A DNA stretch of 64,000 nucleotides, from NCBI GenBank assembly GCA_963699135.1, contig OY969415.1, forward strand, positions 1,355,450 through 1,419,449. The letters are read 5' to 3'. The position numbers were made by a program, and so were the translations under genes. The notes under the pieces were generated by a model. The model saw only the letters and a list, made by a program, of their open reading frames with translations. It was not told the origin of the DNA and did no database searches. The first letter of the stretch is position 1, and every line of letters starts with the position of its first letter. This document shows, one piece after another, positions 12,869-34,047 of this stretch. The DNA is from an uncultured Armatimonadetes bacterium. GTDB taxonomy: Bacteria; Armatimonadota; Hebobacteria; Hebobacterales; Hebobacteraceae.

Positions 12869-13005
12869 TCTCTCCTGGTGCGAGTGGGGCCGCTCGCCTT
12901 GACACGGCCAATCGACCGACATTATACTGCGTTTGCGTGAAATGCGTAGGGCAGGCCCGCCCCGAGATTGCCGAGGGGAGCGATTCTCCTGCCTGGCAGA
13001 GCCGT

Positions 13006-13091
13006 GCCGGTGTGGCGGAATGGCAGACGCGCCTGACTCAAAATCAGGTGTCCGCAAGGGCATGGAGGTTCGACTCCTCTCACCGGCACCA
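13006..13091 (+). tRNA. tRNA-Leu (anticodon CAA), class II with a long variable arm and an encoded 3' CCA
   Basis: The sequence is GCCGGTGTGGCGGAATGGCAGACGCGCCTGACTCAAAATCAGGTGTCCGCAAGGGCATGGAGGTTCGACTCCTCTCACCGGCACCA. It has a 7-bp acceptor stem and the anticodon loop CTCAAAA. The T-arm is GGTTCGACTCC. Confidence 0.85.
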
Positions 13092-13112
13092 GCACGAGGA
13101 ACCGCCTGCGAG

Positions 13113-13754
13113 TCAGTCGCTGCTCCCGCCTGCCCGGAGGTAACTCATCGGCTGGCGCCTGATCTTGTCAGCCCAGCGTTCGCCGCACTGCCTGCAGGTA
13201 ACCACCGTTGCGACTAGCGCGACTCTCCCCGGCTGTTGCTGACCCGGCACGACAGGCCTGCCGAGCACTTGCCGCTTCTTCGCCAGATCAGAGCTGCCGC
13301 AGTTGGGGCAGTTCTTCCGGCCCTCGAGCATCTTCAGCCCCGGTCTGTCCTTGGTTACAGGACGCTGCGTGGTGAGGTCCAGAGCATAGCCGCAGTTCCT
13401 GCACCGTAGCACTAGCGCCAGTAGCTTCGTTTTCCTGTCGACTGTCTGCCATTCCATGGTGACGTGGAGGCTGCCGCACTTGGCGCAGGCGCGGGCGAAG
13501 AGCTTGCTGCGCTGGGGCGGTCTGGATCCGCGAGTGGGCACTTGTGGGGACCGCCCCCGATCGACTAGCGACGGCAGCGCAGGCTGCGCCCCGCAGGAGC
13601 ATCCCTCTTGCCGCGCCGCGCGCGGCTGCGACTCCCCCAGCAACCGGTGGTGTCCGCGCAGAGGCCGGGCGTCCGGCCACAGGGCCAGCGCGAAGATGCT
13701 GATGAGCACTCCGGCGCAGAACACCCACTGGACACTTGCACAGAGGCGTGCCAT
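13113..13754 (-). CDS. Hypothetical protein with an N-terminal TM helix and two zinc-ribbon motifs
   Basis: 213 aa. The CxxC pairs are CAKCGS..CRNCG and CPNCGS..CRQCG. I recognise no conserved family. Confidence 0.4.
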   Translation of the reverse strand: MARLCASVQWVFCAGVLISIFALALWPDARPLRGHHRLLGESQPRAARQEGCSCGAQPALPSLVDRGRSPQVPTRGSRPPQRSKLFARACAKCGSLHVTMEWQTVDRKTKLLALVLRCRNCGYALDLTTQRPVTKDRPGLKMLEGRKNCPNCGSSDLAKKRQVLGRPVVPGQQQPGRVALVATVVTCRQCGERWADKIRRQPMSYLRAGGSSD

Positions 13755-13965
13755 CGGTTGACCTAGCCCCCTACGAAACGCGAGCTCCGACGTCTAGGTC
13801 TCAACGGCCAGCGGGGACACAAGAAGGGGAACCAAAACCGGCTCAACGGAGCGGCTGGATGGTGCAGCGATACTACTTCGAATCGGGCCGCAAAGCAAGC
13901 CCTGGGGGGTGAACGATGGCCTGGCCACAGACTGCCGGAGCAGCGGGAACAGCAGGAACAGCGGA

Positions 13966-14030
13966 GGGGCTTCGGCAGTAGAACTACCGAAGGAGCGTGA
14001 GGGAGGGGCTTCGGCAGTAGAACTACCGAA
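13966..14030. repeat. Two tandem copies of the hairpin unit GGGGCTTCGGCAGTAGAACTACCGAAG (internal GTAG)
   Basis: The copies lie at 13966-13992 and 14004-14030. Related units (..tagaactaccgaagcaacgg..) recur at about 19585. Confidence 0.8.
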
Positions 14031-14626
14031 GCAACGGGGAGCCGCGGAAATGCACGCATGAAAAGTGGCGTTTTCGCAGATGCGGCGCGATGTTCCACGT
14101 GGAACATTTCGGGGATTTCCGGGGTGTTCACATTGACGGAATCGGAGGGTCGGGTGGGAGGCGGGCGGGAGAGAGGGGGTGAGGGGGCGGAGGGTGGGAA
14201 TTGGCGTAAGTAAGCAAGGTATTGATAGTACAAGAGGCAAGCTGAAATGGAGTCGATTTCCGTACGCGGGGATTTCGCGATTTGCCCTAGAAGGCGGCTG
14301 GATGGGTCCAGGAGAGGGGCGCGAAATGCGTCTCTTTCGCGGGAACGCCGTATTATGAGCTTTTTCGGGGGAGGGCCGGACTATTTCACGTAGGGCAAGC
14401 CAGAGGGGTCAGAGGGGAAGATAGGGGCATTTCGGGGTCTGAGGGGAGGTGCGCGCAGGGGGGCATAGGAGTGCACGAGATGCGTGGTTCGCGGGGCGAG
14501 ATGTGCGTGTTTTCGGTGGCTTTGGGCCGTGCATTTCGGGGGTGGGAAGGGGGCGGAATCGGGGTGTACTAAGGGGTTAGTACAGTGGGTTTGGGCATAG
14601 GCATAAGTGGAGGGAACGGGAACAGC

Positions 14627-14690
14627 ACGGCAACGGCGGTAACCGCAGATTACGCAGATTGCGCAGATTGGCGCCCGCCGATGGCGGGCG
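14627..14690. repeat. Repeat unit acggcaacggcRgtaaccgcagattacgcagattgcgcagatt followed by a GC hairpin. A second copy lies at 17978-18041.
   Basis: The two copies match exactly or nearly so. Each contains a 3x gcagatt mini-repeat and a hairpin (cgcccgccGATggcgggcg, or ggcccgccTAACggcgggc in the second copy). Confidence 0.8.
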
Positions 14691-14768
14691 AAACGGCAAG
14701 GGCGCTCTTGGGGGGGCGGAGGTGGGGGACGCGGGATCGCCGCCCTCCCGGCGGCGGGCGGGCAGGGA

Positions 14769-16091
14769 GGGCGTGATTCATTGTAAAGTAGCAAGACCTC
14801 CTTGACAGTCGTCTAGCAGGACATGGTTGACACTTTTGATCTGGGTAGTCGCAGCGCCAGCGCGCTGGTATCGCGGGTGCGCAAGTCCAGCTCCCGGATC
14901 GCCATCGCCCGGTAGCTGACCACCACCAGGTGTTCCACCTCCTCCACGCACACCGGCTCGCCCGCCAGCGCCTCGCACACAAACCAGCGTCGGCCCCGCC
15001 ACTTCAGGCACCCCTGGCTGTTGAGACGTTGCACCACTCCGGTGTCATAGACCCAGGGCGCTGGCTGCTCCCGGTAGGGCCGGAGCTTCTGGAACGAGTA
15101 GACCTGGCTGGGACACCGCATCCCCAGCGCCTCGTGGGGACGCGCCTGGTTGTACTCCCGGCGGAACCGCGGCGCCCCTTGCCGCCAGCTCTCCAGGTCC
15201 GGCGGCAGCCCCTCATGCCAGGTGCGCGCTTTCAGGGTGCGGTGGAAGCGCTCCACCTTCCCCCGGGTCTGGGGGTGTGAGGGTCGGCCGTAGAGGAGCT
15301 CGATATCCTGGTTCAGCAGCCACACGCTCAGCCGGGTCAGCCCGTAACCGTTGGTGGTCGACCACCACGGCGCCCCCCGATCCATCAGCAGCGCCTCCGG
15401 CACTCCCGGCTCCCGAAAGAGCCCTCCCAGCGCCTCCTGGACCCCCTCCAGCGCGACGCTGGGCAAGGGCCAGCGCCCCACCAGATAGCGGGAGTGATCA
15501 TCGATCAGGCTCAGCGGGTAGCACCAGCCCTGCGCCAGCGCATACTCTCCCTTGAAGTCCATCTGGTGCAGCTGGTTGGGCGCCTCCCGCACAAACCGCC
15601 CCTGCGCCTGGCCCCGTACCGGCCCCGCCATCAGTCGCCCTTGCCGGCGCAGAATCCGGTTGATACTCCACTCCGCCAACGGCACCCCTTCGCGCGCCAG
15701 CAGCACCTGCAACTTCCGGGCTCCCCACCCATACGCCTCCCGCAACGCCACCACCCGCGCCTCCAGTGCCGCTGGGGTCTGCGTCGGCGAACGCCGGGGC
15801 CGGCGGGAGCGCTCCTGCAGCCCGCCGCAGGAGCCACCCTCCTCCAACCGTCTCCGCCAGCCGTAGCCGGTCTGCCGGGAGATCCCGTACTCCGCACACA
15901 ACTGCGCAAAGGGAGCCACCCGCTGCTTCGCCCGCACCAGGAACTCAATGCGTTGATCCATGACACGCGTATCCTTCCAGGGCATGGGCCTCACCTCGCT
16001 GCTAGCAGACCCTTCCGCCCTCCCAAGTGTCAAGGATGTCCTGCTATATCAGTGTCAAGGATCTCATGCTACCGTACAATGAATCACGCCC
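14769..16091 (-). mobile_element. IS481-family insertion sequence (about 1.3 kb) with roughly 55-bp imperfect terminal inverted repeats, inserted into a REP-like hairpin
   Basis: The left end is gggcgtgatTCATTGTAAAGTAGCAAGACCTCCTTGACAGTCGTCTAGCAGGACATGGTTGACAC. The reverse complement of the right end is ..GTGTCAAGGATGTCCTGCTATATCAGTGTCAAGGATCTCATGCTACCGTACAATGAatcacgccc. The flanking halves gggcgtgat / gaatcacgccc together reconstitute the hairpin that is seen intact at 29853-29872. Confidence 0.75.
14813..16033 (-). CDS. IS481-family transposase (DDE/rve integrase with an N-terminal HTH)
   Basis: Intact 406-aa ORF. It has an N-terminal HTH (FAQLCAEYGISRQTGYGWRRR) and a DDE integrase core (..HQMDFKGEY..LIDDHSRY..). 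It also carries the IS481-like C-terminus (FHRTLKARTWHEG..YNQARPHEALG). Confidence 0.8.
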   Translation of the reverse strand: MTLGRAEGSASSEVRPMPWKDTRVMDQRIEFLVRAKQRVAPFAQLCAEYGISRQTGYGWRRRLEEGGSCGGLQERSRRPRRSPTQTPAALEARVVALREAYGWGARKLQVLLAREGVPLAEWSINRILRRQGRLMAGPVRGQAQGRFVREAPNQLHQMDFKGEYALAQGWCYPLSLIDDHSRYLVGRWPLPSVALEGVQEALGGLFREPGVPEALLMDRGAPWWSTTNGYGLTRLSVWLLNQDIELLYGRPSHPQTRGKVERFHRTLKARTWHEGLPPDLESWRQGAPRFRREYNQARPHEALGMRCPSQVYSFQKLRPYREQPAPWVYDTGVVQRLNSQGCLKWRGRRWFVCEALAGEPVCVEEVEHLVVVSYRAMAIRELDLRTRDTSALALRLPRSKVSTMSC

Positions 16092-16210
16092 CTACGTACG
16101 GCGACGGAACAGGAACGACGAGATTGCCACGCGCGCCTCGGCTCCGGTTGGAGCCGAGGCGGCTCGCAATGACAGAGATGGGCGGCAACGGCCGCCCCTC
16201 GCACTGAGAG
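16092..16210. repeat. Composite repeat built from units gattgccacg-[hairpin]-ctcgcaatgaca. Variants recur at about 19627-19682, 25056-25110, 29906-29965 and 18048-18100.
   Basis: Contains cgacgagattgccacgcgcgcctcggctccggttggagccgaggcggctcgcaatgacagagatgggcggcaacggccgcccctcgcactgagagcgg. The inner hairpins GGCTCC-GGTT-GGAGCC and GGGGCGGC-AACG-GCCGCCCC are enclosed by ATTGC/GCAAT. Confidence 0.75.
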
Positions 16211-16215
16211 CGGAG

Positions 16216-17631
16216 CTAGGTCACTTGCACGGTGGTGAGGAGGTGCCAGCCGTCGTCGCAGACTTCCTTGATCGCCAGGCGGACGACGGGGGTGTTGGTG
16301 TCGTCGACGAGGCCGAGGCCGAACTGGGCGCCGCCGGGGCGGAGGGACTTGGGGATGGTGATCTTCTCGGCAAACCAGGAGTAGCCCGGCAGCCACTTGC
16401 GCACGTCCTGGCGCGATAGCACCACCTCTTCATCGGCGCCCTGGCGGAAGAGATACGCGAGTCGGTAGGGGCGGTAGATGGGCGCGACTCCGACGTTGTC
16501 GATCCACACCTCCAGGTCGATGCGCTTGCCGCGCTTGACCTCGATCGGCATCAGCACCTGCCTCAACACGAAGCGATAGCCGAGCTGCTTGTTGAACCGC
16601 TCGATCTTGTCGGCCCAGGCCTCGGGGATGTAGCACGACTTGGGCATGAAGACGGAGGGGTGGTACTTCAGCGCCTGGTCCAGAATCCAGTCGACGTCCC
16701 ATCCCTGCTCGTACCAGTGGCCGACGGTCCAGCAGGTTTCGAGGGTCACGGGGCCGGTGCGCCAGGCCTCCTGCACGCCGTCGGTGAAGATCTCCTTCGG
16801 GTAGGCGTCGTGCATGTGGTTCCAGCAAAGCCGGTCGGGCATGACGCCGCGGCCGTCGGCGCGGAGGTCGCCGATGCAGTCGGCGCGCCAGCCGATGCGG
16901 AGGCCCTTCTTCTTCGCGGCGTAGGCGCAGCCGGGGGTGCCGAGCATGGAGACGAGCTGGGTCTTCGAGAAGCTTCCGAGGTAAGCATCGACGAGGCGGG
17001 CGGCCGTCTCGGGGGTGGCATTCCCACCCATCTCCCCGCACGCGCCGCCATAGGCCACGTCGAAGCTCTCCAGATTCGAGTGGCCGTCGAAACGGGCGGC
17101 GAAGGCGCGGACAAAGTCGCTCCAGTGGTTGATGTAGAGGTCGTGGTTGTGCTCCGGTTCCTTGCGGCCGTTGTCGACGTCCTTCACCATCACCGGGCAG
17201 CCCATCCCCCACAGCCAGGCGGGGAGGTCGTCGTCGATGTAGGGCTGAACGCGAACCTGGAGGGTCTGGCCGCGCAGGCGCGCCGCCTCCAGCGCGCGGT
17301 CGATGATATCCCAGCGGAACTTGCCCTTCTCCGGCTCGATCACCGACCAGAGCCAGCGGCAATAGGAGAGGGTAGTATCGGGGTAGCGGTCATTCCTCCG
17401 GTTGCCATCGAAGGGCGGGAACTCCGTGGGGCCGACGCGGTCATCCCACTGCAAGCCCGGATAGAGCGGGTCGCCGTTGAAGCGCTGGAAGGTGGTCGTC
17501 CCTTTGTGAGGGTTCAGGAGGAAGGCATCGCTCTCGCGAGGCCGGATACGCTGGATGGACTGGTTGGGGGAGTAGCCGGCGGGCCAGCCAGTAACGGGCC
17601 GCTTGCGATCGCACTTCTCGTCAAAGGTCAT
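16216..17631 (-). CDS. Hypothetical protein, possibly glycoside-hydrolase-like (DUF4832/DUF4874-type)
   Basis: Intact 471-aa ORF with no signal peptide. The assignment rests on weak recall of family resemblance only. Confidence 0.35.
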   Translation of the reverse strand: MTFDEKCDRKRPVTGWPAGYSPNQSIQRIRPRESDAFLLNPHKGTTTFQRFNGDPLYPGLQWDDRVGPTEFPPFDGNRRNDRYPDTTLSYCRWLWSVIEPEKGKFRWDIIDRALEAARLRGQTLQVRVQPYIDDDLPAWLWGMGCPVMVKDVDNGRKEPEHNHDLYINHWSDFVRAFAARFDGHSNLESFDVAYGGACGEMGGNATPETAARLVDAYLGSFSKTQLVSMLGTPGCAYAAKKKGLRIGWRADCIGDLRADGRGVMPDRLCWNHMHDAYPKEIFTDGVQEAWRTGPVTLETCWTVGHWYEQGWDVDWILDQALKYHPSVFMPKSCYIPEAWADKIERFNKQLGYRFVLRQVLMPIEVKRGKRIDLEVWIDNVGVAPIYRPYRLAYLFRQGADEEVVLSRQDVRKWLPGYSWFAEKITIPKSLRPGGAQFGLGLVDDTNTPVVRLAIKEVCDDGWHLLTTVQVT

Positions 17632-17735
17632 GGGGGTCTCCTTGGCGCTGCGCGGGAGGTTCGCCGCGGGGAGGGCGGCTACCTAGTGGGGGGGCAACGG
17701 CAGGCCGGGCGCAGAGGGAAGACAACGGCTGGAGA

Positions 17736-17952
17736 TGACTGCCCGGCACGATTGTGCCGGGCAGGAGCCTGTTGGGGGACGACTGGCCGTTCGTCCCCCA
17801 AACCCCCTCACCGGCTTGTGGCGTCCTGACGAAAGCATGAGGTGGCAGCGAGGGGAGTGGGACGCCGCCCCTCGCAACGACAGCGGAGGAGGGAATGGCA
17901 GGACCAAGTCGCCGGAGGCGACCAAGGGTCCTGCCGAACGGGAACCTAGCCA
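17736..17952. repeat. About 215-bp composite repeat (copy 1 of 2; copy 2 at 29646-29847) made of several hairpin modules
   Basis: Modules: TGCCCGGCAC-GATT-GTGCCGGGCA, GGGGGACGA-ctggccg-TTCGTCCCCC and GGCAGGACC..AAGTCGCC-GGAG-GCGACT..GGTCCTGCC. The two copies are roughly 90% identical. Confidence 0.8.
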
Positions 17953-18178
17953 CCTGCGGCGGGAGAGTAACGGCGAAACGGCAACGGCAGTAACCGCAGA
18001 TTACGCAGATTGCGCAGATTAGGCCCGCCTAACGGCGGGCGGAGGGGTACGGTGAGATGGCCACGGGGCGGCAACGGCCGCCCGTCGCGATGCCACCCGC
18101 ACGCTGCGAGCGCGGGTGGCAGGCCGGGGTGATGGGTGTGGCGAAGACTGGGAGTATACCTTTGGGGACAGGGTGGCT

Positions 18179-19306
18179 ATGACTTCACGCGAGCGGTTGT
18201 TGACGGTGCTCAGGGGCGGGGTGCCGGATTGTGTTCCGGTGGCTCCGGATTTCTCGAACATGATCCCGGCGCGGCGAACGGGGAAGCCGTTCTGGGATCT
18301 CTATCTGTATCGCGACCCGCCGATCTGGGAGGCGTACCTCGACTGCGCGAAGCACTTCAACATCGACTCGCTGATGGATGGGTTCTTCCCACTGACTTTC
18401 GGCGACCAGGGAGATGACGGCTGGGAGCGGTATATCGTCGGCCGCACGCCGGAGCGGATCTATGTGCAGTCGTGCCGGATGGAGAACGGGGCGCGACGAT
18501 GGCAGCCGACGGTCACGGTGTACTACATCGCCGATCCGCCGACGGCAAACGTGCCGGTGGGGAAGATCGGGCTCCCGCCGGTGCCGGAGCGATGGGAGCC
18601 GATCGAAGGGATCAAGCCGAAGGACCTAGGGCCGGAGGGGTTCAAGCAGGTGAAGGCGATGATGGGCGACCAAGGGCTGGTCGGCACCGGTGTGGCGTCC
18701 ACGTTTGCGGTGAGCAGTGAGCAGGAGATCTATCGCTACTACGACCACCCGGAGGAGCACGCGCGGTGGGCGGAGCAGCGGATCGAGTGGATGGAGCGGC
18801 GGTTCGCGCAGATCATGACGATGGAGGTGAAGCCGGATTTCCTGTCGGTGGGAGGCTCGGGCACGTTGGTCTACCAGACGGTGGAGATGATGCGGAAGAT
18901 CGCGCTGCCGGCGGTGAAGAGGGCGATCGAGCTGGCGACGGCGGCGGGGCTTCCGACGCACATTCACTCCTGTGGGCCGGAGAAGGAACTCGTCAGGATC
19001 ATGGCCGAGGAGACGAGTCTGACGATCATCGATCCGCTGGAGACGCCGCCGATGGGGGACTGCGATCTGGCGGAGCTGAAGCGGAAGTACGGGCACAAGA
19101 TCACGCTGAAGGGGAATCTGCACACGACGGATGTGATGCTGCGGGGGTCGGTCGCGGAGGTGGTGCGGGCGAGCAAGAAGGCGATCGATGATGCGGCGGC
19201 GGGCGGGCGATTCGTGCTGTCGACGGGGGATCAGTGCGGGAGGGATACGCCGGAGGAGAATATCCACGCAGTGGTGGAGACGGCGCGGACGTATGGGAGG
19301 TATTGA
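18179..19306 (+). CDS. Uroporphyrinogen decarboxylase (URO-D)/MtaA-like family protein
   Basis: Intact ORF. The ORF track starts at 18116, but the likely start is ATG 18179 (MTSRERLL). It has URO-D-fold motifs and the C-terminal ..GRFVLSTGDQCG. Confidence 0.6.
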   Translation: MTSRERLLTVLRGGVPDCVPVAPDFSNMIPARRTGKPFWDLYLYRDPPIWEAYLDCAKHFNIDSLMDGFFPLTFGDQGDDGWERYIVGRTPERIYVQSCRMENGARRWQPTVTVYYIADPPTANVPVGKIGLPPVPERWEPIEGIKPKDLGPEGFKQVKAMMGDQGLVGTGVASTFAVSSEQEIYRYYDHPEEHARWAEQRIEWMERRFAQIMTMEVKPDFLSVGGSGTLVYQTVEMMRKIALPAVKRAIELATAAGLPTHIHSCGPEKELVRIMAEETSLTIIDPLETPPMGDCDLAELKRKYGHKITLKGNLHTTDVMLRGSVAEVVRASKKAIDDAAAGGRFVLSTGDQCGRDTPEENIHAVVETARTYGRY

Positions 19307-19309
19307 GGA

Positions 19310-19690
19310 GGGGAGGGAACGGCGTTCACCGCAGAGACGCAGAGGGCGCAGAGAACGGCAACGGCCTGCCCGCCAGTATCCTGGCGGGCAGAGCCCGCAA
19401 TTGGGGGCGACCGGCGATTCGCCCCCAAGCCCCCCACTCGCCTTTGGCGTTGCTGACAAGAGCGGAGGGTAGCAGCGAGAGAAGGTAGCAGAAGGCAAGT
19501 CACGGGAGGCGACGAGGGCTCCCGCCGAACGGGACCGCGGGGGCTTCGGCAGCCCCTAAGTCCGCCGTAGGCGGACCGGGGTGGCGGCACTTTGCCTAGC
19601 CATAGAACTACCGAAGCAACGGCAACGACGAGATTGCCACGGGGCAGCGGCAGGCCGCTGCCCCTCGCAATGACAGATAGGCGCGTTCAC
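19310..19690. repeat. Intergenic mosaic of hairpin repeats
   Basis: Contains CTGCCCGCCAG-tat-CCTGGCGGGCAG; GGGGGCGA-ccggcgat-TCGCCCCC (a compensatory variant of the 17775 module); GTCCGCC-GTAG-GCGGAC; and the unit gattgccacggggcagcggcaggccgctgcccctcgcaatgaca. Confidence 0.75.
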
Positions 19691-21364
19691 GTGGTCGGAG
19701 GCGGAAGGTGAGGGGGGTGGGGCCGACGGGGGAGCGGAGGGCGAGGCGGTTGGAGGAGGGTGAGGAGGTGTTGTCGGCGGTGTAGGAGTTGAAGGGGCTG
19801 ACGGGATACTCGATGGTGGTCTCGGGGCGAAAGGTCAGGCGGAGGCCGCGGTAGAGGAGGGCGCCGCGGTGTTCGCCGGGCGCGACGGTGAAGGGCTCGT
19901 CGCCGAGGGTGATCTCGCCCCGGCCTTCGATGGTGCAAGTCTCTCCGTGGGACACGGCCGGCACGAGGGTGAGGGTGACGGGGCGGGCGGCATCTGTGAC
20001 CGAGAAGGCGAGTTCGACGCCGCCATCGATGAGGCGAGAGGCCACTCTCGCGTTGAACCCGGAGTAGCGATAGGAAACCACTTCTTCCTCACCCCCCGCT
20101 GACACCAGTTTCGCCTCCAGCGGCATACACGAGGCCCCATCTCCGGCTTGCGAGAAGGTCGCCAGCTCGGGCTGGAACTTGGAGTTGCTGCCGTCGATGA
20201 CGAGGCCGGCCTGCTGATGCCAAACGCTGACGAGGGCCTGGCGGTCGAGGCAGAACTGGTTGTCGGGCCACGGTTCGGAGCACTGACCGGAGAGAGCCAC
20301 CACCCAGGGGTCCTGCTTGCGGAGGGCGGAGGCTCCGTCGAGGGTGGCGCGGTAGGAGGGCTGCTTCTGGGGGGGCGATGTTTCCTCACCTTCTTCCAGC
20401 AGCAGGAAGGCCTCGGCGACGCGGGCGACAGTCTCGCCGGACAGGCCATCGCGGTGGCGGCGAAGCTGCTCCAGCATAAAGCGAACGTAGCCGCGGCCAT
20501 CGGGCCAACGAGTGAAGCCGGCGAGGCCCCACATGAGTGGGCTTGAGAGGTGTTGCATGCGGCCATCGATGCATTCGACGGGGACGCCGTCGGGGTAGGT
20601 CCAGTGGGAGTGGAGGTCGAGCCCGCGGCGGAGGGCGGGGAGGCCGGTCGGGTCGCCGGACCAGATGGTGTACTGGCCGACGCCGTCGTAGGTGAGGAAG
20701 TTGTAGCCGAGGGCGGGGCCGTGGTGCTCCTCCCAATAACCGCCGGGCCGCTGGTCGGCGATGAGGCGTCGCATGAGATCGGCGGAGAGGTCGGCCCACT
20801 CGGGGCGGTCGAACTCGCGGCCGGCGAGCCAGAGCAGCGCGAGATAGAGTGCGAAATGGTTGGTGCCGGTGCCCACCTGGTGGGAGGTGAAGCGCGCGAC
20901 ATCGCGGTGGGGGAGCAGGTGGCGGTGGAGGAGCCAGTCGCAGGCGCGGATGATCTTGTCGCGCCAGGTGGCCTCGTCGGCCGCGGTAGTCGCTCCCGGA
21001 GGAGGCGGTAGGCCTGGAGCCAGGCGCAGGTAAGGCGCTGGCAGACGAAGGGGTGGCTGAGCGTCACGCCGCGCAAGCGCCAGGTCATGGTTCCGTCGTC
21101 GGCGATGCGGCTGGCGATGTGCTCGCCATTTCTCAGGATCGCCTGCCACAGCCGATCATTGCCGCGCCAAGGGTTGCCGGGGCGATCGGAGGTATGGAGC
21201 AGGGCGGCCGCGAGAATGTACTGCTGGTCGAAGAAGTTCCACTCGTTGGTTTCGTGCTCGCGCTCGGTGGAGAAGCGGCCATCGCTCCACTGGAGGTCGA
21301 GAAACTGCTCGGCGCTGCCAGCGACGAGGTCGAGGCTCAGGTCCCGCAAAGTGGGGTTCGGCAT
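19608..21364 (-). CDS. Hypothetical protein, possibly a heparinase II/III-like polysaccharide lyase, with one frameshift near 21030
   Basis: The N-terminal roughly 110 aa are in the frame of ORF 19835-21364 (MPNPTLRDLSLDL..WRLRGVTLSHPF). The rest is in the frame of ORF 19608-21149. The gene starts 10 nt downstream of the LmbE-like gene. The functional call is weak. Confidence 0.35.
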
Positions 21365-21373
21365 TCTCTGCTC

Positions 21374-22855: not shown

Positions 22856-23005
22856 CCTGCACCTGGAGGTTGCAGATCCAGTAAAGGTAGGCGGGCGAGC
22901 AGGCCACGGGGAGACTGATCGCGGCCAGGAAGATCAGCCATCCAACTGAGCCAGTGAATACCGGTCGGTAGACCTTCATGGGAGGCAACTCCTCTTCTTC
23001 TATGA

Positions 23006-23911
23006 TCAGAGGCCGCGTTGGGCGCCGGCGCGGCGGAGGCGGGCGCGGAGCCAGGCGCGTAGGGCAGGCCCATGCTCGGGGTCGGCGAGACCAAGCTCGG
23101 CGAAGGCCTGGAAGTAGCTGAGGAAGTTGCCGATGTCGAGGCGATGCTCGTTGGGGCGGAGCTTCACGCAGAGGATGTCGTGGCCCTCGGCGAGGAGGAT
23201 GCGGAAGGCATCAGTGAGCCAGAGTTCGCCGCCGATGCCGGGCTTGGTGCGGCGGATGGCATCGAAGACAACCGGCTCCAGCAGATAGCGGCCGGCGGCG
23301 GCGAGATTGCTGGGAGCGCGATCGGGCTTGGGCTTCTCGACGATGTCGCGGATGGCGAAGACGTCGCCCTCGGAGTCGCGGGGGGCGACGATTCCATACC
23401 TGCTGACGGCCTGCCTGGGAACGGCCTCGACGGCGATGGTGACGGCGGGCCGGTGGCGCGCGTGGGCCTCGATCATGCGGGTGAGGAGGGGCCGCTTGGC
23501 CTTCGACACGACGATGGAATCGCCGAGCGCGACCACGAAGGGCTCACCGGCGACGAAGGGCTCGGCAAGGCCGATGGCATCGGCGAGGCCCTTGGGCACG
23601 GTCTGGCGGGCGTGAAAGAACTGGAGCTTCGTCCAGGCCTCGGACTCCTCTCCGTTGGGACCGACCTCGCGGTCGAGATGGTCCTCGATGGCGCGCTTGC
23701 CCTGCCCAGAGATAACGAGGACCTCCTTGAGATCGGCGGCGGCGAGCTCCTCGACGACGTGCTGGATGGTGGGCTTGCGCCCGACGGGCAGCATTTCCTT
23801 GGGCTGGGATCGGGTGGCGGGAAGCAGACGCGTCCCGCGCCCGGCGGCCGGGACGACGGCCTTCACGATGAGAGGTCTTCGATCTGAAGTCTTGGGATCA
23901 GCGCGTTTCAT
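23006..23911 (-). CDS. Nucleotidyltransferase, UTP-glucose-1-phosphate uridylyltransferase (GalU)-like sugar-1-phosphate nucleotidylyltransferase
   Basis: Carries the signature AVVPAAGRGTRLLPATRSQPKEMLPV. It overlaps the upstream GHMP-kinase gene by 4 nt. Confidence 0.7.
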   Translation of the reverse strand: MKRADPKTSDRRPLIVKAVVPAAGRGTRLLPATRSQPKEMLPVGRKPTIQHVVEELAAADLKEVLVISGQGKRAIEDHLDREVGPNGEESEAWTKLQFFHARQTVPKGLADAIGLAEPFVAGEPFVVALGDSIVVSKAKRPLLTRMIEAHARHRPAVTIAVEAVPRQAVSRYGIVAPRDSEGDVFAIRDIVEKPKPDRAPSNLAAAGRYLLEPVVFDAIRRTKPGIGGELWLTDAFRILLAEGHDILCVKLRPNEHRLDIGNFLSYFQAFAELGLADPEHGPALRAWLRARLRRAGAQRGL

Positions 23912-24930
23912 TGGCCATGCACCACGGAGAATCGGTATCCCTTCGCTTCGTAGGCGGCGGCGAGGCCCGGCGGCGGGCGCGACCCGGTGAGCAGGATGAG
24001 GGCGGCCCCGCTGGAGCCGGGGAGTTTGGCCGGCAGCCCGGCGGCGCGCGCGATCTCGACCAGCGCGACGGTGTGGGCGCCGATGAGCTGGTCGCCGAAG
24101 AGACCGCGGCGGAGGTCGAAGTTGCGGTTCATGAGGCGGCCGAGTTCGGCGAAGTCGCGCCGCTGGATGGCGGCACGACCGGCCTCGGCGCAGGCGGCGA
24201 TCTCTCGCATCACCCGGGTAACCTCCGGGTCGCCCGCTTCCCAGCGGCTGCGGATGCCGGCGTGGATATGGCCCGACTCCTGAAGTCCGGTCTGCTCGGT
24301 AAGGTAGGCGATGGCGAACCGGGGCAGCAGGCCGACATCGAGGCGTTGGTAGCTGGGCTGCTCGCCGGAGAAGTCCATGTAGGTGAGCGCCCCAAAGGCC
24401 TGCACCACGCGGTCCTGGAGGCCGGCGGCGATGCCCAGCTCTTTGGATTCGACGCTAAGCGCGAGCGCGGCGAGTTCCTGGGGTGGGACGGCGGCGGCCG
24501 GAACGCGATGGAAGCGAAGCAGGGCGCGGAGGGCGGCGATGATCATGGCGCTGGATCCGCCGAGCCCGGACTGACGAGGAATGGTGGTCTCGTATTCGAG
24601 GGTGAAGTTGGCCTTGCGCAGGCGAAGGCTTCGCTCCTGGCAGTAGGCGACGAAGCGGGCGCAGGTGGCGAAGAGCAGGCGCTGCATGCCGTAGTAGCCA
24701 TGGCGGCGCACGGTGTTCACGAGGTCATCAAGATCGGCGAACTCGGAACGGTCGTGGTCGGGGTGGAGGCGGAAGGTGAGGCTGGGGCTCTCCCAGAGCC
24801 GGACCTGGGCGGCGAAGTCTCGGATGAGGAACGAGATCACCTTCCCGCCGTAGATGTCGGAGGGGTTGCCGAGCAGGCCGGCTCGCGCGTGGGCCTTGCT
24901 GCGTACGATCACGGCCGGCCGCCGGAGCAA
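23908..24930 (-). CDS. GHMP-family sugar kinase (galactokinase/glucuronokinase/heptose-phosphate kinase-like)
   Basis: 340 aa with the GHMP ATP-binding motif PRQSGLGGSSAMIIAAL. It is the first gene of a kinase plus nucleotidyltransferase pair. Confidence 0.65.
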   Translation of the reverse strand: MLRRPAVIVRSKAHARAGLLGNPSDIYGGKVISFLIRDFAAQVRLWESPSLTFRLHPDHDRSEFADLDDLVNTVRRHGYYGMQRLLFATCARFVAYCQERSLRLRKANFTLEYETTIPRQSGLGGSSAMIIAALRALLRFHRVPAAAVPPQELAALALSVESKELGIAAGLQDRVVQAFGALTYMDFSGEQPSYQRLDVGLLPRFAIAYLTEQTGLQESGHIHAGIRSRWEAGDPEVTRVMREIAACAEAGRAAIQRRDFAELGRLMNRNFDLRRGLFGDQLIGAHTVALVEIARAAGLPAKLPGSSGAALILLTGSRPPPGLAAAYEAKGYRFSVVHGQ

Positions 24931-25039
24931 GCCGATGGAACGATCATCCGACGTGCGAGGGGACTTGGCTGCGTCATGATCTCTCCCACGGCGACCTCAT
25001 TTCCGCGGAGAGGGCGGCTGGTCCTGCCGTCGGGGGGCA

Positions 25040-25150
25040 CAGAAACGGAGGGGGAGCACAACGGCGAGATTGCCACGGGGCGGCAACGGCCGCCCCTCGC
25101 AATGACAACTGGGGAAAGGCATGCCGGGGGCGTGCCTACGCGGGTTACCA
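25040..25150. repeat. Repeat units: gattgccacggggcggcaacggccgcccctcgcaatgacaactgggg, plus the hairpin GGCATGCC../GGCGTGCC-tacgcgggtt (related copy at 59825-59865)
   Basis: Direct sequence identity with the units at 16092-16210, 29906-29965 and 59825-59865. Confidence 0.75.
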
Positions 25151-25362
25151 CTCGCTGGCGCTCGTGGCAAATGCGCCAGAGGCGCACAAGCCCACGCCAC
25201 TGGCCGGCGGGAGGCCGCGCGGCGAGCGAGGGGGCCAGGGAAGGGGGGGGGGGAGCGACGTTGGGCAGGAACGGGTTCTGGAGCCGTGGTAGTTAGCCCT
25301 CAGTACCGGTGCGGCCCTCTTTCCATGGTCACACCCCTAGCACCGGCGTCAGCGAGGCAGCG

Positions 25363-27826
25363 ATGTCCACAGGCAGCAGGAAGAAGGGGAAGGCGAGCAA
25401 GAGCGCCGGCGGTCCCCAGAAGCAGCAGCCACAGAAGCAGCAACCGAGGAAGCCAGTCAGGAGCCGGGTCGAGTGGGTGCAGGTGGTGGGACAGGTGGTG
25501 ATAATCCTGCTCATCGTCGCGGTCCCGGTGGTGCTCAATATCAGGTCCAACAACGTGTGTGATGTGAAGGATGTCGTGTTGGGCCTCGGGGTGGCGGCAG
25601 GGCTGGGGTTGTGGCTGCTGGCATCCCTGGCGAAGGGCGAGAATCTCGTGGGCAAAGTCGCGGCTGAATACGGCGGTGCTGGCATTCGTGGCCTGGTCGG
25701 CGGTTAGCATCGTCTATGCTCGCTATCGCTATGTGACGGTCTCGGAACTGGGGAGGCTGGCGTCGAATCTGGCGTTGTTCTGGCTGGTGATCTTGTGCCT
25801 GCGCAGGCTGGCGCAGGTGAGGAGGGTGCTGGGGTGGGCGGCGATCGGCGCGGTGCCCGTACTCGGTTACGCCTTCTACCAGAAGAGTGGCCGGGACTTC
25901 ATCCCTTGGAGCGAGCCCGTCACGCGCGTTTTCTCGTTCCTGGCGAACCCCACGTACTTCGGCGGCTATCTGATGCTGCTGATCCCGGTAATGGTTGCCT
26001 GTGGGGTGATGTACCTCCAGACTGACGAGGAGCAGCCCGAGCGCCGGAAGTCCTGGGGGGCTTACGTGCTGGCCGGGGGCTTCTTCGCGCTGGCCGCGGC
26101 GATGCTGCTCTGCCTCTACCTGTCGGTGACCCTGTCGGGGATGATCGGTTTGGGACTGGCGCTGTTGGTGGCGTTCGTGTTGGTGATCGCCCGGGGCGGG
26201 CGCAGGGCGATCCGCTGGGCGATACCGGCGGCGGCGCTGTTGGCGGTGGTGGTGACGCCGCTGGGCTATCTCGGCTACAGCCATTTGGACGTGGCTCAGC
26301 AGCGGCGCGTGCAGCAGGTGATTCGATTCCAGGATCCCTTCGCGGAAGAGCGGCAACTGCACTGGCGTACGGCGCTGGGGATATTCCGCGAGCGACCCGC
26401 AGTCGGTGAGGGGTATGGCGCGTTCCGCGTCTACTCGCTGGAGAAGATGGCCACGGAGTGGTACGCGCAGGACACGAGGCGCGCACAGACGATGTTGGTC
26501 CCGGGGTACGCGCACAATGAATATCTTCAGATGCTGGCGGACACGGGGCTGATCGGCGGCGTGTTGTTCCTGGGGGTGGCGCTGGGGGCGCTAGGGCTGG
26601 CGGTGTGGCTGACGATACGGCACCCGAGTCGGCGCTGGGCGACACTGTGTCTGGCGATCAGCGCGGCGATGACGGCGTTCCTGTTCCAAAACTTCTTCGG
26701 GGTGACATTCCGGCAGGCGGGAGTGGTGACGTTCTACTGGCTGTGGTTGGGGCTGCTGGTTCTGGCGGCGGCCGCCATACCGCGGCCGGGGAAGGAGGAA
26801 ACTGGGGGCCTGCTCCTCCACTTGACCCGGTTCCGGCCAGTTCCGGCGTGGGGCTGGGCGCCCGCGGGAGCGGCGATCGCGGCGGTGTGGTGGTTCCTGC
26901 TGTGGCCAGTGGCGGTGGACCCGGTATATGCCTCCATGGACGTGCGGCTGGCGAAGCGCCTGGCGGGGCAGGGGGAGTACCGGGTGGCGGCTCAGTTGGC
27001 GGACCACGCGGTCTCGCTCTGTCCCTATTCCTTCGTGGGCTACTACACCTCGGGATTTGCGTGGGGTCAGACGGGCGACTACGAGAAGGCAGTGACGGCG
27101 AACAAGAAGGCGCTGGAGCTGATGCCGGGCAATGCCAGCGTGTACTACAACCTCGGAGTCGCTTACAAAGAGAAGGGTGATCTGGACCAGGCGCTCGCCA
27201 TCTTCAGGCGCGCGGTGGAGCTGATGCCGACCTCCTACAAGCATCAGGCGGCGATGGCGGAGACGCTCGCGAAGCAGGGCAAGCTGAAGGAGGCGCTCCC
27301 GTACGCGCAGGAGGCGGCCAGGCTGTCCCGTCGCAGCAAAGACGAGGCAAGCTGCTATCTGCTGGTGGCCGACATCTGCAACAAGCTGGGCCGGGTCACG
27401 GAGATGACGGCCGCGCTGAAACAGGCGTCGGAGCTGGACCCCAACAGCCCGAAGCTGAAGCAGCAATTGGCATTCCTCTACTTCAAGAACGGCGATGCGC
27501 CGATGGGCGCGAAGATGCTGCGCCAGTGGATCCAGCTGGAGCCGAATGCCGCGATGGCGCACAATGTGTTGGGGACGTACTACCTCGGACGGCAGCAGTA
27601 CCCGGAGGCGAAGGCGGAGTTCGAGCGGGCGGTGCAGATCGATCCCAACTACGCGGTGGCGCGGTTCAACCTGGGGCTGACCTATGGCCGCATGAAAGAC
27701 ATGGGAGCGGCGGTGGCGCAGTTCCGCGAGGTGGCGGCCCGGTCGCCGAGGTCGCCCGAAGCCCAGCGGGCACGGCAAGCGCTGGATAAGCTGGCGCGAC
27801 AGGCGCCGGTGGGGCGGAAGCGATAG
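25363..27826 (+). CDS. O-antigen ligase (Wzy_C) family membrane protein with C-terminal TPR repeats. One frameshift lies near 25660.
   Basis: ORF 25309-25707 gives the N-terminus with the first TM segments (VVIILLIVAVPVVL.., LGLGVAAGLGLWLLASLAKGEN). ORF 25571-27826 gives the remaining TM helices and the TPR region (YYNLGVAYKEKGDLDQALAIFRRAVEL.., NVLGTYYLGRQQYPEAKAEFERAVQIDP). Confidence 0.6.
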
Positions 27827-27879
27827 CCACCCCCCCGGCCCCGCTCGCGCCTACTCCTTACAGCCCCATCAAGAGGGGG

Positions 27880-28449
27880 TTGGACGTATTGGTATCCGGG
27901 GTCTGCCTGGCGCTTTCGCTGCCCTTCTGGGTAGCGATCAGCATCTCCATCCTTCTCTATGACGGCTGGCCGGTGCTCTACTGCCAGCGCCGAGTCGGCA
28001 AAGGGGGCCGCGTCTTCCTGGCCTACAAGTTTCGCTCGATGGTGAAGGAAGCGGAGAGGATGACGGGGGCGATGCTGGCGGTGAAGAATGACCCCAGGAT
28101 CACGCCTGTGGGACGGCTGCTGCGGAAGGCGGCGTTGGATGAGATCCCGCAGTTGCTGAACATCTTCAAGGGCGACATGAGCTGGGTGGGTCCGCGGCCG
28201 GAGCGGCCGGAGTTCGTGAGGCAGTTCCTGGGTCAGATCCCCGCCTATGGGAGGCGCCACCTGGTGACTCCCGGCTTGACGGGGGTGGCACAGGTGCAGG
28301 GGCGCTACCACACCGATCCGATTGACAAGCTGAGATACGATCTCTACTATGTGCGAAATCACAGCCTCCGGCTGGATTTTCGGCTTTTCGTGATGTCCTG
28401 GCTGATCACCGTCAAGGGCCGATGGGATAGCTCCGCCGCGAAGAGATAG
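27880..28449 (+). CDS. Bacterial sugar transferase (polyprenyl-phosphate hexose-1-phosphate transferase, WbaP/WcaJ C-terminal-domain type)
   Basis: 189 aa. It has an N-terminal TM helix and the motifs YKFRSM, KNDPRITPVGRLLRK..LDEIPQLLNIFKGDMSWVGPRP and LRLDFRLF. There is no ATG, so I infer a TTG start. Confidence 0.7.
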   Translation: MDVLVSGVCLALSLPFWVAISISILLYDGWPVLYCQRRVGKGGRVFLAYKFRSMVKEAERMTGAMLAVKNDPRITPVGRLLRKAALDEIPQLLNIFKGDMSWVGPRPERPEFVRQFLGQIPAYGRRHLVTPGLTGVAQVQGRYHTDPIDKLRYDLYYVRNHSLRLDFRLFVMSWLITVKGRWDSSAAKR

Positions 28450-28514
28450 CAGGGGTGTGACCACGGGGAGCGGGACGGCGGCGGAGCGCGACAAGCCCTG
28501 CGCGGAGGAAATCC

Positions 28515-29318
28515 GTGCTTTCCGTCGCAACCGGCGCGCATCCCGTGGGACGCGCCGCAGTGGGGGGGATGGCGCTGCTTGTCCTCGCCAGCGCTCCCGG
28601 CTGCGGAAGGCTGCGCGCCGCTCCAGGTCCGGCCCCACTTCGCAACTCCTCCTCAGTCGGGCAGATCGCGTGGCGCGTCCGGACCAGTAAGAAGGTGGTC
28701 GCGCTGACGCTGGATGACGGCCCGAACCCGAAGTACACGCCGGTCGCGCTGAAGATCGCGCGGGAACACAAGGCGAAGCTGACGTTCTTCGTGCTCGGCC
28801 GGGAGGTGGAGCAACACCCGGAGCTAGTGCGTCAGGCGGTCCGCGAGGGACATGCCATCGCCAACCACGGCTGGGATCACACGCTGCTGACGGAGCGGGG
28901 GTCGCGCAAGGGGACGGCCGGCGGGGGTACCCTCTCGGAGGTGGCGCGCAAGCAGATCCGGAGTTGCGAAGAGGCGGTGGCGAAGGCCTGCCAGGTCCAC
29001 ACCGATATCTTTCGCCCCCCGAAGGGGATGTGGGACAGCGAGACATCGCTGGCGGCGGAAAGCCTGGGTTACCGGATGGCGCTGTGGACGATCACGCTCG
29101 AACACCACTCGGCCCCTTCGCCCCAGGAAATGGCGGATCGCGTGATCGACAGGATCACCCCAGGCACGATCATCTTGGCGCACGATGGGGAGCCGAAGCC
29201 GCCCATCGACCGGCGCAAGACGATAGCGGCGCTGCCGCTGCTGATAGACGGTTTGCGCGAGAAGGGGTATGAGTTCGTGACAGCGCCGGAGCTACTGGCA
29301 CTAGCGAAGGGTGAGTGA
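28515..29318 (+). CDS. Polysaccharide deacetylase (NodB homology/CE4) lipoprotein
   Basis: Carries the motifs ALTLDDGPNP and HGWDH. There is a lipoprotein-like signal at MALLVLASAPGC, so the true start may be ATG 28569. Confidence 0.7.
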   Translation: MLSVATGAHPVGRAAVGGMALLVLASAPGCGRLRAAPGPAPLRNSSSVGQIAWRVRTSKKVVALTLDDGPNPKYTPVALKIAREHKAKLTFFVLGREVEQHPELVRQAVREGHAIANHGWDHTLLTERGSRKGTAGGGTLSEVARKQIRSCEEAVAKACQVHTDIFRPPKGMWDSETSLAAESLGYRMALWTITLEHHSAPSPQEMADRVIDRITPGTIILAHDGEPKPPIDRRKTIAALPLLIDGLREKGYEFVTAPELLALAKGE

Positions 29319-29560
29319 TGGTCAGATCTCTGATGTTGGCCGCGCTGATGGCTATCGGGTCAGTGGCCTCGGCCGCCGCTGGCGGGACGAACGCGCCGGC
29401 TGCGACACCGCTGCCGCAAACCGCGTCCCACCCGCCGGACGGGGCGCTGCTCGATGCCTTCTGGGCGCGGGCCATGGAGGAGACGTACAAGTCGCCGGCG
29501 GAACTGGTGGCGCAGGACCAGCGGGAGCAGCGAGAGGGTTACACTTCCAGACGGTGTCGG
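29318..29560 (+). CDS. Small secreted hypothetical protein (signal peptide MMVRSLMLAALMAIGSVASAAAG). Its 3' end is uncertain because the ORF reads into the repeats.
   Basis: Its start overlaps the deacetylase stop (GTGATGG). The ORF shows no stop until 29860, where it is already inside the REP-like repeats, so the true C-terminus is unclear. Confidence 0.25.
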
Positions 29561-29645
29561 AGATGGCGGCGGCTCAGGGGCTGCACTTGTAGAGCGGGCG
29601 GGGGAAACGGCACTCACCGCAGAGGGGGGCGGTACGGCTGGCACC

Positions 29646-29995
29646 CATTGCCCGGCACGATTGTGCCGGGCAGAAGCCTGCTGGGGGACGACTGGCCGTT
29701 CGTCCCCCAGACCCCCTCACCGGCTTCTGGCCTCCTGGCGGAAGTATGGGGTGGCAGCGGGAGCGATGAAGTAACGAGCGCAATGACAGTGAGGGGATGG
29801 CAGGACCAAGTCGCCGGAGGCGACTGGAGGTCCTGCCGAACGGGAGGAGGGAGGGCGTGATGAATCACGCCCCTACGGGAGGGGGTTCGGCAGCGAATTA
29901 CCGAAGCAGCCAACACCGAGATTGCCACGCACGCCCTGGCTCCGGTCGGAGCCAGGGCGGCTCGCAATGACAACTGGGGCGATGGGGAGAGTGCG
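29646..29995. repeat. Mosaic repeat block: copy 2 of the roughly 215-bp composite (29646-29847), an intact REP-like hairpin GGGCGTGAT-gaa-TCACGCCC-ctac (29853-29876), and gattgccacg..cgcaatgaca units (29906-29965)
   Basis: Direct identity with 17736-17952, with the IS flanks at 14769-14777 and 16081-16091, and with the unit at 16113-16160. Confidence 0.8.
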
Positions 29996-33991: not shown

Positions 33992-34047
33992 TTCTGTCTC
34001 CCTGTATGAGTCACTAGGGGGCCCGAAGTGGGCCCGCGGCTTGTCGG

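Follow-up and report, generated by a model that had tools for sequence, protein, structure and literature searches.

Hairpin-forming repeat mosaics and a RAYT gene in the intergenic DNA of an uncultured Armatimonadetes bacterium

The DNA analysed was a 64-kb stretch of contig OY969415.1 (the window; ~67% GC) from an uncultured Armatimonadetes bacterium, and the copy counts and orientations given for it refer to this window. Several blocks between its genes consist of short, hairpin-forming repeats, here called units A, B and D, hairpins C1, C2, C3 and E, and palindrome G. One block includes a gene for a REP-associated tyrosine transposase (RAYT; REP, repetitive extragenic palindrome), and another is interrupted by an element resembling the insertion sequence (IS) family IS481. 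Coding and non-coding DNA were distinguished by third-position GC and Pfam matches, and repeats within the window were identified by sensitive self-BLAST. To assess hairpin stability, 20 units were folded as single-stranded DNA and z-scores were calculated against dinucleotide shuffles. Relatives were represented by syntenic contigs (numbered with the prefix L). Of these, L375 and L377 are close relatives, their gene DNA being ~92–93% identical to that of the window, and L370 and L371, labelled Armatimonadota, are more distant (81–83% protein identity) with gene order kept. The protein encoded at 18179–19306, between two of the blocks, is 81–83% identical to its Armatimonadota-labelled counterparts. 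The blocks contained the following features.

13966–14032 (+): unit D, two tandem copies, GCTTCGGCAG-TAGAA-CTACCGAAGC, with GTAG across the stem-loop junction; 35 nt, 94% identical; z −4.0
14627–14700 (+): unit B, three 9-mers (CGCAGATT-N), then a GC hairpin; 91% identical to 17978–18041
14768–16100 (−): IS481-like element in the loop of palindrome G; IS at ~14782–16078, transposase gene at 14813–16033, halves of G at 14768–14781 and 16079–16100
16119–16210 (+): unit A copy 1 (16119–16176), then a partial A with inner hairpin and degenerate right arm; z −4.6
17690–17952 (+): composite copy 1, with a B'-like head, C1 (17739–17764), C2 (17772–17802), a decayed A (17843–17885) and the REP-like C3 (17897–17945)
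17953–18110 (+): unit B and its hairpin (17978–18043), a degenerate A (18048–18092) and one more hairpin
19310–19690 (+): composite copy 2, with a B'-like head, C1, C2, a decayed C3, a split unit D (19543–19616) and unit A copy 2 (19629–19677)
25065–25215 (+): unit A copy 3 (25065–25109), the GTAG-type hairpin E (25118–25146) and an extension, TACGCGGGTT-(variable hairpin)-CCCACGCCACTGG
29596–29985 (+): composite copy 3, with a head, C1-C2-A'-C3 (29646–29847), intact G (29851–29880), a D variant (29877–29905) and unit A copy 4 (29917–29974)
59795–60062 (no strand assigned): G variant (59795–59822), hairpin E (59829–59857) and an inverted pair of E extensions (59849–59898 and 60010–60058; 80% inverted match, E 5e-4)
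61147–61718 (+): predicted REPtron, with the REP cGTAGGGCAGGAGCTTGTCTCCTGCC (61147–61176), the RAYT/TnpAREP gene (61193–61675) and an inverted REP (61688–61718)

Modules, composites and hairpins

A preliminary description of this DNA had named a set of repeated units, and every one of them was recovered at or near the position given there. The self-BLAST yielded 14 non-trivial matches with E-values down to 2e-53, well beyond chance, and 11 of these link blocks named in that description. The remaining three were a gene duplication, a lone palindrome (54261–54295) and the self-complementary stem of unit A copy 4. Segment 17740–17943 matched 29649–29845 with 83% identity over 205 nt (E 2e-53), and 14627–14690 matched 17978–18041 with 91% identity (E 2e-16). 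Shorter matches joined 16119–16174 to 29917–29972 (89%) and 25112–25146 to 59823–59857 (91%). The only other long repeat in the 64 kb was the gene duplication, at 33.2–34.8 kb.

The blocks had been taken as non-coding and as assembled from a small vocabulary of units. Most of them are indeed non-coding, with the exception of the RAYT gene at 61193–61675 and the IS481-like transposase gene at 14813–16033. The modules do recur; however, the blocks 17690–18100, 19310–19690 and 29596–29985 align end to end and are copies of one ~380-nt composite rather than free assortments. The order within the composite is a CACCGCAGAG-type head, C1, C2, a spacer with a decayed A, C3 ending in CCGAACGGGA, a variable stretch (G, D or B) and a final A. 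Mosaics of ~220–380 nt are themselves repeated in the window. All modules lie on the + strand regardless of the direction of the neighbouring genes, and the only inverted pairs are those at 59849/60010 and on either side of the RAYT gene.

Among the individual modules, the tandem D pair presents GGGGCTTCGGCAGTAGAACTACCGAAG at 13966 and again at 14004, and unit D is also found in L124–L127 and in L377/L375. Palindrome G has the form GGGCGTGATGAATCACGCCC-CTAC and is intact at 29851–29880. Hairpin C3, whose tail in composite copy 1 reads GAACGGGA, is a relative of the REP flanking the RAYT gene with a mutated tag. The extension that follows hairpin E represents a family whose arms are fixed and whose centre varies, (T)ACGCGGGTT-(hairpin)-(A)ACCCACGCCACTGG, at 25133–25215, 59844–59900 and 60010–60058 (−), and in the close relative L377 at a different locus (~11400–11470).

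The units had been described as hairpin-forming, and 17 of the 20 folded with z-scores from −2.3 to −7.2, those of composite copy 1 ranging from −4.6 to −7.2. Weak folds were limited to three units: z was −0.6 for the degenerate A copy at 18045, −1.2 for the E copy at 25118 and −2.0 for the hairpin at 18011–18043 that follows the second unit B. The example that had been quoted for a stem kept by paired change is a paired deletion of one base pair, GGGGGACGA/TCGTCCCCC at 17775 compared with GGGGGCGA/TCGCCCCC at 19401. Hairpin C1 provided two further double substitutions, GCCCGCCAG/CTGGCGGGC compared with GCCCGGCAC/GTGCCGGGC.

The RAYT locus and the element in palindrome G

The gene at 61193–61675 (+) encodes a 160-aa Y1 HUH protein (Pfam Y1_Tnp, E 3.7e-8). 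It matched the NCBIfam equivalog REP_Tyr_transpos (NF047646) with 126 bits against a cutoff of 80, and its best PDB match was 4ER8, the E. coli TnpAREP (E 4e-11). The HUH motif (HYH), the tyrosine within EYLHANPV and the GTAG-contacting residues WQ..DH..R (PMC6006769) are aligned with 4ER8. A perfect 30-nt inverted repeat (61147–61176 versus 61718–61689, 100%) encloses the gene, and half a REP follows at ~61745–61780. The REP family around the gene is GTAGGGCAGGAG..CTCCTGCC, that is, GTAG plus GGCAGGAG..CTCCTGCC. The copy at 61150 reads cccGTAGGGCAGGAGCTTGTCTCCTGCC, likewise in L121–L127. The earlier remark that several units carry GTAG beside the stem is supported here: the RAYT gene is flanked by inverted hairpins with this tag, as are its homologs elsewhere.

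Homologs of the window RAYT, 57–60% identical, were found on five metagenome contigs (L121–L125), flanked by nearly the same inverted REP, with further REP copies within a few kb; L124 carries six copies in 3 kb. Two ~230-nt elements of L124 (7637–7867 and 8902–9145) consist of a REP pair enclosing the first RAYT codons and are internally deleted remnants, which suggests that the whole REP-RAYT-REP unit was copied or moved. In L122 (9959–10512) and L123 (7067–7620), the RAYT gene with its REPs lies between gyrB and gyrA. L122 holds a second, longer RAYT-like gene (16152–16811), flanked by a different GTAG hairpin, GTAGCGCAAACTGTCAGTTTGCGC.

Judged by sequence, the window locus is a predicted REPtron of canonical arrangement, and the GTAG-tagged GGCAGGAG..CTCCTGCC repeat is the predicted cognate, substrate-type repeat of its RAYT/TnpAREP HUH-tyrosine enzyme. 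As in the REPtrons of E. coli, Pseudomonas and Stenotrophomonas (PMC2817692, PMC3479197, PMC6006769, PMC8266576), a Y1 HUH protein with the RAYT signature is encoded between inverted hairpins with GTAG at the 5' foot. The basal stem of the REP has three G-C pairs, and the REP recurs around diverged homologs with more copies nearby. The window RAYT shows an E100-to-D change, which is known for subclasses 2.5 and 2.7 (PMC6006769). Canonical GTAG REPs are lacking in Y1 HUH subclasses 2.1, 2.3 and 2.6 according to the same paper. The locus differs from known REPtrons in its Armatimonadota-like host, in having only two intact REP copies in 64 kb and in a REP that is nearly unchanged between RAYTs only 57–60% identical. 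A further difference is that the deleted copies of L124 suggest movement of the unit, whereas REPtrons appear not to move (PMC6006769).

The second enzyme gene of the blocks, at 14813–16033 (−), encodes a transposase whose best NCBIfam match was IS481 (216 bits, just below the cutoff of 224), with Pfam matches to rve, rve_3 and HTH domains. The element ends in terminal inverted repeats of 67 nt with 84% identity (self-BLAST). At the orthologous site of L377, palindrome G is uninterrupted (GGGCGTGATGAATCACGCCCCTACG), and the same palindrome stands at 29851–29880 in the window; the IS481-like element was therefore inserted into the loop of G. At the junction, a duplication of at most 2 bp (AT) is legible. 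Insertion sequences known to target REP palindromes include IS1397, ISKpn1 and ISPpu9/10. The element resembles these in lying exactly in the loop of a repeated palindrome, with the empty site intact in a relative. It differs in being IS481-like and not a member of the IS3 or IS110 family, and in the legible duplication of only 2 bp. Both of its terminal repeats carry outward-facing, sigma-70-like hexamers (xTGTCA-17-TACAAT; 14780–14808 (−) and 16052–16080 (+)), which could drive transcription into the flanking DNA.

Units A and B beyond the window

Unit A consists of GATTGCCACG-hairpin-CTCGCAATGAC. In the window, the arms GAGATTGCCACG and CTCGCAATGACA occur exactly four times each, always on the + strand (16120, 19630, 25066 and 29918), and with degenerate copies at 18054, 17871, 16198 and 29777 the total is about eight. 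Species-representative genomes were then scanned with the pattern GATTGCCACG-N15-40-CTCGCAATGAC. Exact arms were found in at least 120 genome stretches (151 matches) from more than 20 phyla with 31–68% GC, compared with ~7 matches expected by chance in the 596-Gb collection, as calculated here for a 21-base pattern with 26 allowed gap lengths; the arms being fixed by the search pattern, their invariance is partly ascertainment, with the inner stem and flanks left unconstrained. The matches listed included Proteobacteria classes, Campylobacterota, Bacillota, Bacteroidota, Chloroflexota, Patescibacteria, Planctomycetota, Actinomycetota, Armatimonadota, Spirochaetota, Nitrospirota, Elusimicrobiota and others. 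Exact arms were also present in at least 120 IMG/VR viral contigs.

The triple CGCAGATT motif of unit B was found in at least 120 metagenome contigs with 34–74% GC. Among the matches listed, it often occurs as inverted pairs that make small palindromic elements. Outside the lineage of the window, units A and B are almost never found at one locus and are therefore independent families. Confinement of the units to the window, which would have spoken against the preliminary description, was not observed: relatives have them at the same loci and elsewhere, and A and B occur in many genomes and metagenomes. Part of the small vocabulary is common to many bacterial phyla, and it is no private feature of this genome.

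Overall, unit A spans 35–75 nt. Its basal stem of 5 bp is followed by an internal loop or bulge, which is conserved, and then by a second stem whose sequence and length are free. The basal stem (ATTGC/GCAAT) is invariant, which is partly fixed by the search pattern. The centre (12–60 nt) has no sequence conservation and its GC follows the host, yet it is self-complementary. For the covariation analysis, the arms and the six innermost-flanking bases on each side were kept, giving 117 distinct unit-A copies. In these rows, 87.8% of cells were paired overall, compared with 70.9% after shuffling, and the covariation score was 0.391 compared with 0.106. None of 500 shuffles reached this score, and sliding the partner gave at most 0.106. 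The three best-paired inner positions were paired in ~79–86% of rows, with all four Watson-Crick pair types represented. The compensatory changes thus persisted when more copies were aligned.

The flanks of unit A have a purine on each side (96% and 91%). The base after GCAATGAC was A in 117 and G in 75 of 210 copies, so that the other strand begins with TGTC in 56% and with CGTC in 36%. In full, the other strand reads YGTC-ATTGCGAG-(variable hairpin)-CGTGGCAAT-C, and the tail is C, then Y (96%), then C (52%) or A (28%). A sister form with the arms GGATCC...AGGATGAC(A) was seen in L373 (11215–11245), L368 (11215–11470) and L248. It suggests a broader scheme, G-AT-y-C-y ... r-G-r-AT-GAC, that would also cover the ATTCCC/GGGAAT type. 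In the Clostridia metagenome-assembled genome (MAG) L091, two unit-A copies face each other across ~90 nt at 400–600 and 2270–2460, making ~230-nt inverted-repeat elements. These adjoin GTAGGGGAGCCATTCATGGCTCCC hairpins, which have the format of palindrome G in the window.

In the related phage contigs L167 and L220, a ~100-nt cluster of unit A lies in frame in an SPP1-type portal gene and adds ~34 residues, and five homologs are without it. Rickettsia palindromic elements (RPE) reportedly also have copies in frame inside genes.

No partner gene for unit A emerged when the open reading frames (ORFs) within 250–400 nt were clustered, first in 120 genome loci and then in 240 genome and viral loci: no family was common to them except ordinary phage structural genes, and the RAYT profile detected no RAYT in the unit-A loci. 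Likewise, no mobilising enzyme was found for units A or B. In searches of Rfam 15, the window gave only a tRNA-Leu at gathering score, and relaxing the E-value limit to 5 brought up nothing relevant, whether in the blocks or in four loci rich in unit A. When open-access papers were searched for the literal sequences and peptides, only primers and unrelated text came back, and these repeat sequences were not found in print there. Empty sites were also sought among the unit-A loci, where comparisons mostly led to tandem arrays. L128 versus L011 was rejected as an empty A site, as the difference was a GTAG hairpin inserted beside unit A: a ~50-nt GTAG-hairpin segment adjoins unit A in the phage contig L128 (~5600–5660) and is missing at the homologous place in the Oscillospiraceae MAG L011 (~7545–7580). 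For L234 versus L157, the left flanks were too diverged for the junction to be read.

The REP superfamily tagged with CGTC or TGTC (Di Nocera et al. 2013; PMC3733652), whose unpaired tag at one end may also be CCTC, includes Neisseria dRS3 and Rickettsia RPE-4/RPE-6, was known from 5 phyla in 2013, has no associated transposase and has stems of 8–9 bp with loops of 4–5 nt. Unit A resembles this superfamily and may belong to it, perhaps to its CGTC-3/4 families, or be a long bipartite-stem relative of it. The likeness lies in the TGTC or CGTC start of the other strand, in a stem that opens with A-T and T-A pairs and perhaps in a short pyrimidine-rich tail, which in the superfamily is near CCA. 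In addition, no transposase gene was found flanking unit A in the 240 loci, unit A coexists with GTAG REPs, and its in-frame copies in the portal gene match the occurrence of CGTC and GTAG REPs inside coding regions (PMC3733652). Unit A differs from the described families in having a bipartite stem in place of the 8–9-bp stem with a 4–5-nt loop, and in occurring in more than 20 phyla among the matches listed and in phage contigs, compared with 5 phyla. The unit-A strings were absent from the supplements of PMC3733652.

Turnover, rival explanations and significance

The blocks were compared with orthologous sites in the relatives. Three orthologous gaps are module-free in L370/L371, where they measure 144, 84 and 194 nt, compared with 541, ~390 and ~400 nt in the window. 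Composite copy 1 is present at the same site in L377/L375 (~93% identical). Relative to these two contigs, the window has an extra ~165 nt at 17953–18110 (unit B, hairpin and degenerate A), and the relatives have 46 nt that it lacks. The window-only insert begins right after the C3 tail, ..CCGAACGGGA, with no visible target duplication. At 19310–19690, only the last D and A are common to the window and L377/L375, and different copies of A, B, D and E stand in place of the upstream part. In L377/L375, the D unit of this site is unbroken (GGCTTCGGCAG|TAGAACTACCGAAGC); in the window, a 50-nt insert carrying a hairpin interrupts it between CAG and TAGAA, again without a visible target duplication. 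The orthologous gap of 25065–25215 holds other modules in L375, and the E extension is at a different locus in L377. At 16119, both arms and the flanks of unit A are kept in L377, with an unrelated central hairpin. Between L368 and L373, whose flanks are near-identical, ~225 nt lie inside the loop of an A-like hairpin, GGATCCTTCGCTG^CGCTCAGGATGACAG. No target duplication was visible at three filled/empty junctions. In other organisms, units A and B also occur as inverted pairs. Relatives with 92–93% identical genes therefore differ in modules at the same sites, and such gain, loss, nesting and exchange over a short evolutionary scale fits mobile or recombining DNA rather than fixed regulatory structures.

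Taken with the REPtron anatomy, the hairpins and the covariation, which like the filled and empty sites were observed directly, this turnover indicates that the non-coding blocks are very probably mosaics of several independent REP-class families of non-autonomous, hairpin-forming mobile DNA, piled up in a few permissive intergenic sites. Several points weigh against it. No transposition event was directly observed, and gene conversion or recombination between dispersed copies could make some of the swaps. Only two intact RAYT-type REP copies are present in the window (plus the C3-like relatives), units A, B, D and E have no linked enzyme, the 240 unit-A loci share no neighbour family, and the fixed arms in the genome scan make part of their invariance a product of the search. 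In the phage contigs of the viral loci L128–L247, unit A lies antisense in 42 and sense in 22 cases between genes (p 0.017), and in 35 and 10 cases, respectively, inside long ORFs; these counts, like those for bacteria, rest on crude ORF calls. The bias could reflect an RNA-level or coding constraint, and a TGA stop in the sense reading of GCAATGAC is a possible cause.

The phage bias would suit hairpins that act primarily as RNA elements of gene regulation, whether as 3'-end stabilisers, Rho-dependent or unusual terminators, attenuators or small RNAs. Their high stability in the folds and the location of blocks 19310–19690 and 29596–29985 downstream of convergent genes point the same way, as does the finding that E. 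coli REPs stabilise mRNA and cause termination (PMC6006769; PMC12306157). However, blocks 17640–18110 and 24990–25400 fill divergent promoter gaps, and none of the eight terminator-like sites found by a simple scan of 13.7–30.1 kb overlaps a unit. Bacterial loci have no strand preference (28 sense, 28 antisense), and no Rfam 15 family was matched by any unit. A primary RNA role, which also sits poorly with modules that are lacking, gained or swapped at the same sites in such close relatives and with an A cluster in frame inside a portal gene, is judged quite improbable. The stems are kept, as the claim of selection on DNA or RNA structure had implied, with single-stranded DNA serving recombination or transposition enzymes a more likely target than RNA. 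A different enzyme could be envisaged for unit A, namely a tyrosine recombinase or IS110-type enzyme in place of an HUH transposase, acting on a folded single-strand site like the attC of integrons, so that hairpin exchange would be site-specific recombination. Unit A and attC share conserved outer boxes, conserved unpaired bases (two positions in the fixed arms of unit A) and a variable, unconserved central palindrome of here 12–60 nt, and function as a folded single strand is a possible analogy. The replacement of the inner hairpin between constant arms at the 16119 site in L377 and the insertion of other elements into the loop also agree with it. Neisseria dRS3 is reportedly an integration site for the IS110-like recombinase of filamentous prophages. 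It is placed in the CGTC-1 group in PMC3733652. On the other hand, the arms GATTGCCACG / CTCGCAATGAC do not match the R''/R' boxes of attC (RYYYAAC / GTTRRRY), no integrase, IntI or other common gene was found near the copies in the 240 loci, and the copies do not form cassette arrays with one ORF per site. Short-patch gene conversion between dispersed copies could explain the hairpin swap as well. An attC-like site is considered improbable, though still a live alternative.

For block 13760–14812, a replication-origin or partition region, or a rearrangement scar, was weighed against a repeat mosaic. GC skew turns from negative to positive at ~14 kb, and the block 13960–14777 contains a parS-like palindrome, TGTTCCACGTGGAACA (14091–14106), which is perfect, one mismatch from the parS consensus and expected 0.01 times by chance. 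Short G-rich direct repeats are present (e.g. GCATTTCGGGG, three times), and synteny with L376/L377 (CSD - DUF981 - DUF4832) stops at ~14.6 kb, just left of unit B. Against this, no DnaA box within one mismatch exists anywhere in the window, dnaA, dnaN and parAB were absent from the genes scanned, and two D units, a unit B and half of G are clearly inside the block. An origin or scar in place of a mosaic, which in any case would cover this block and not the other seven, is therefore unlikely. The block is mixed, with D, B and half of G alongside a parS-like site at the skew turn and synteny end, and the region ~12000–15000 could be origin-proximal or a rearrangement breakpoint. An origin of the repeats in assembly or binning errors, or in chance matches within GC-rich DNA, can practically be dismissed. 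Many of the comparison sequences were MAGs and short metagenome contigs; however, the same modules stand at orthologous positions in independent ENA and JGI assemblies, E-values within the window reach 2e-53, and the at least 120 unit-A stretches, with self-complementary centres, far exceed the ~7 chance matches. The CRISPR reading was rejected, and the simple miniature inverted-repeat transposable element and attC readings were disfavoured, for want of core sites, cas or intI genes, regular spacing or target duplications.

Two further observations concern genes of the window. The gene duplication at 33.2–34.8 kb is a coding segment duplicated in tandem (33218–34000 and 34055–34828; 80% over 784 nt) and is unrelated to the hairpin repeats. 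DNA polymerase I (8992–11656, −) is split into two overlapping ORFs (9389–11656 and 8992–9396) by an apparent +1 frameshift near 9440 in cgcgggagg, reflecting a sequencing error, a pseudogene or a genuine frameshift.

The mosaics grow as new modules land beside, or inside the loops of, existing hairpins. By analogy with IS200/IS608 and E. coli TnpAREP, movement would take place via single-stranded DNA in folded form, with cutting and rejoining but no target duplication. The enzyme would read the hairpin and a short tag, and stems would be kept by compensatory change because these form its recognition feature. Effects on mRNA stability or nucleoid organisation, if any, would be secondary. The preliminary description had called the mosaics similar to bacterial interspersed mosaic elements (BIMEs). 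They are hairpin-repeat mosaics of the REP class and, as with E. coli BIMEs and the Neisseria and Rhizobium intergenic mosaic elements (NIME and RIME), clusters of short repeats fill certain intergenic regions and their content varies between strains. They are not BIMEs in the strict E. coli sense: a BIME has one REP type alternating with defined linkers, whereas here heterogeneous, unrelated families follow each other head to tail, all in the same orientation, and the entire cluster acts as a repeat unit.

Precedents exist for REP/RAYT systems, for intergenic mosaics and for IS insertion into REPs. What is new is the lineage, the fact that nesting and hairpin exchange can be seen directly between near relatives and, above all, the breadth of unit A (and B) across phyla, A occurring in phages too and combining fixed arms with a bipartite stem and a free centre. 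REP elements and RAYT enzymes are known mainly from Proteobacteria, and their benefit to the cell is debated. The window provides a clean REPtron in an Armatimonadota-like genome, and its filled and empty sites show how mosaics grow. For annotation, the repeats yield many spurious small ORFs (e.g. the peptides DCHVASLLAMT and SLRGAQRRSNL) and can sit in frame in real genes.

More tentatively, units A and B might be cross-phylum, phage-carried families of structured DNA, with arms identical across 31–68% GC and a free and exchangeable central hairpin, serving as substrates of a very widespread recombination or transposition activity and also as landing pads for other hairpin elements. If unit A is a long CGTC-tagged REP, the mobiliser of this orphan superfamily would be testable through the genes that co-occur in genomes and phages with the element compared with those without it. 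If the cross-phylum reading is true, the orphan CGTC-tagged REPs would be extended from a few phyla to most Bacteria and their viruses.

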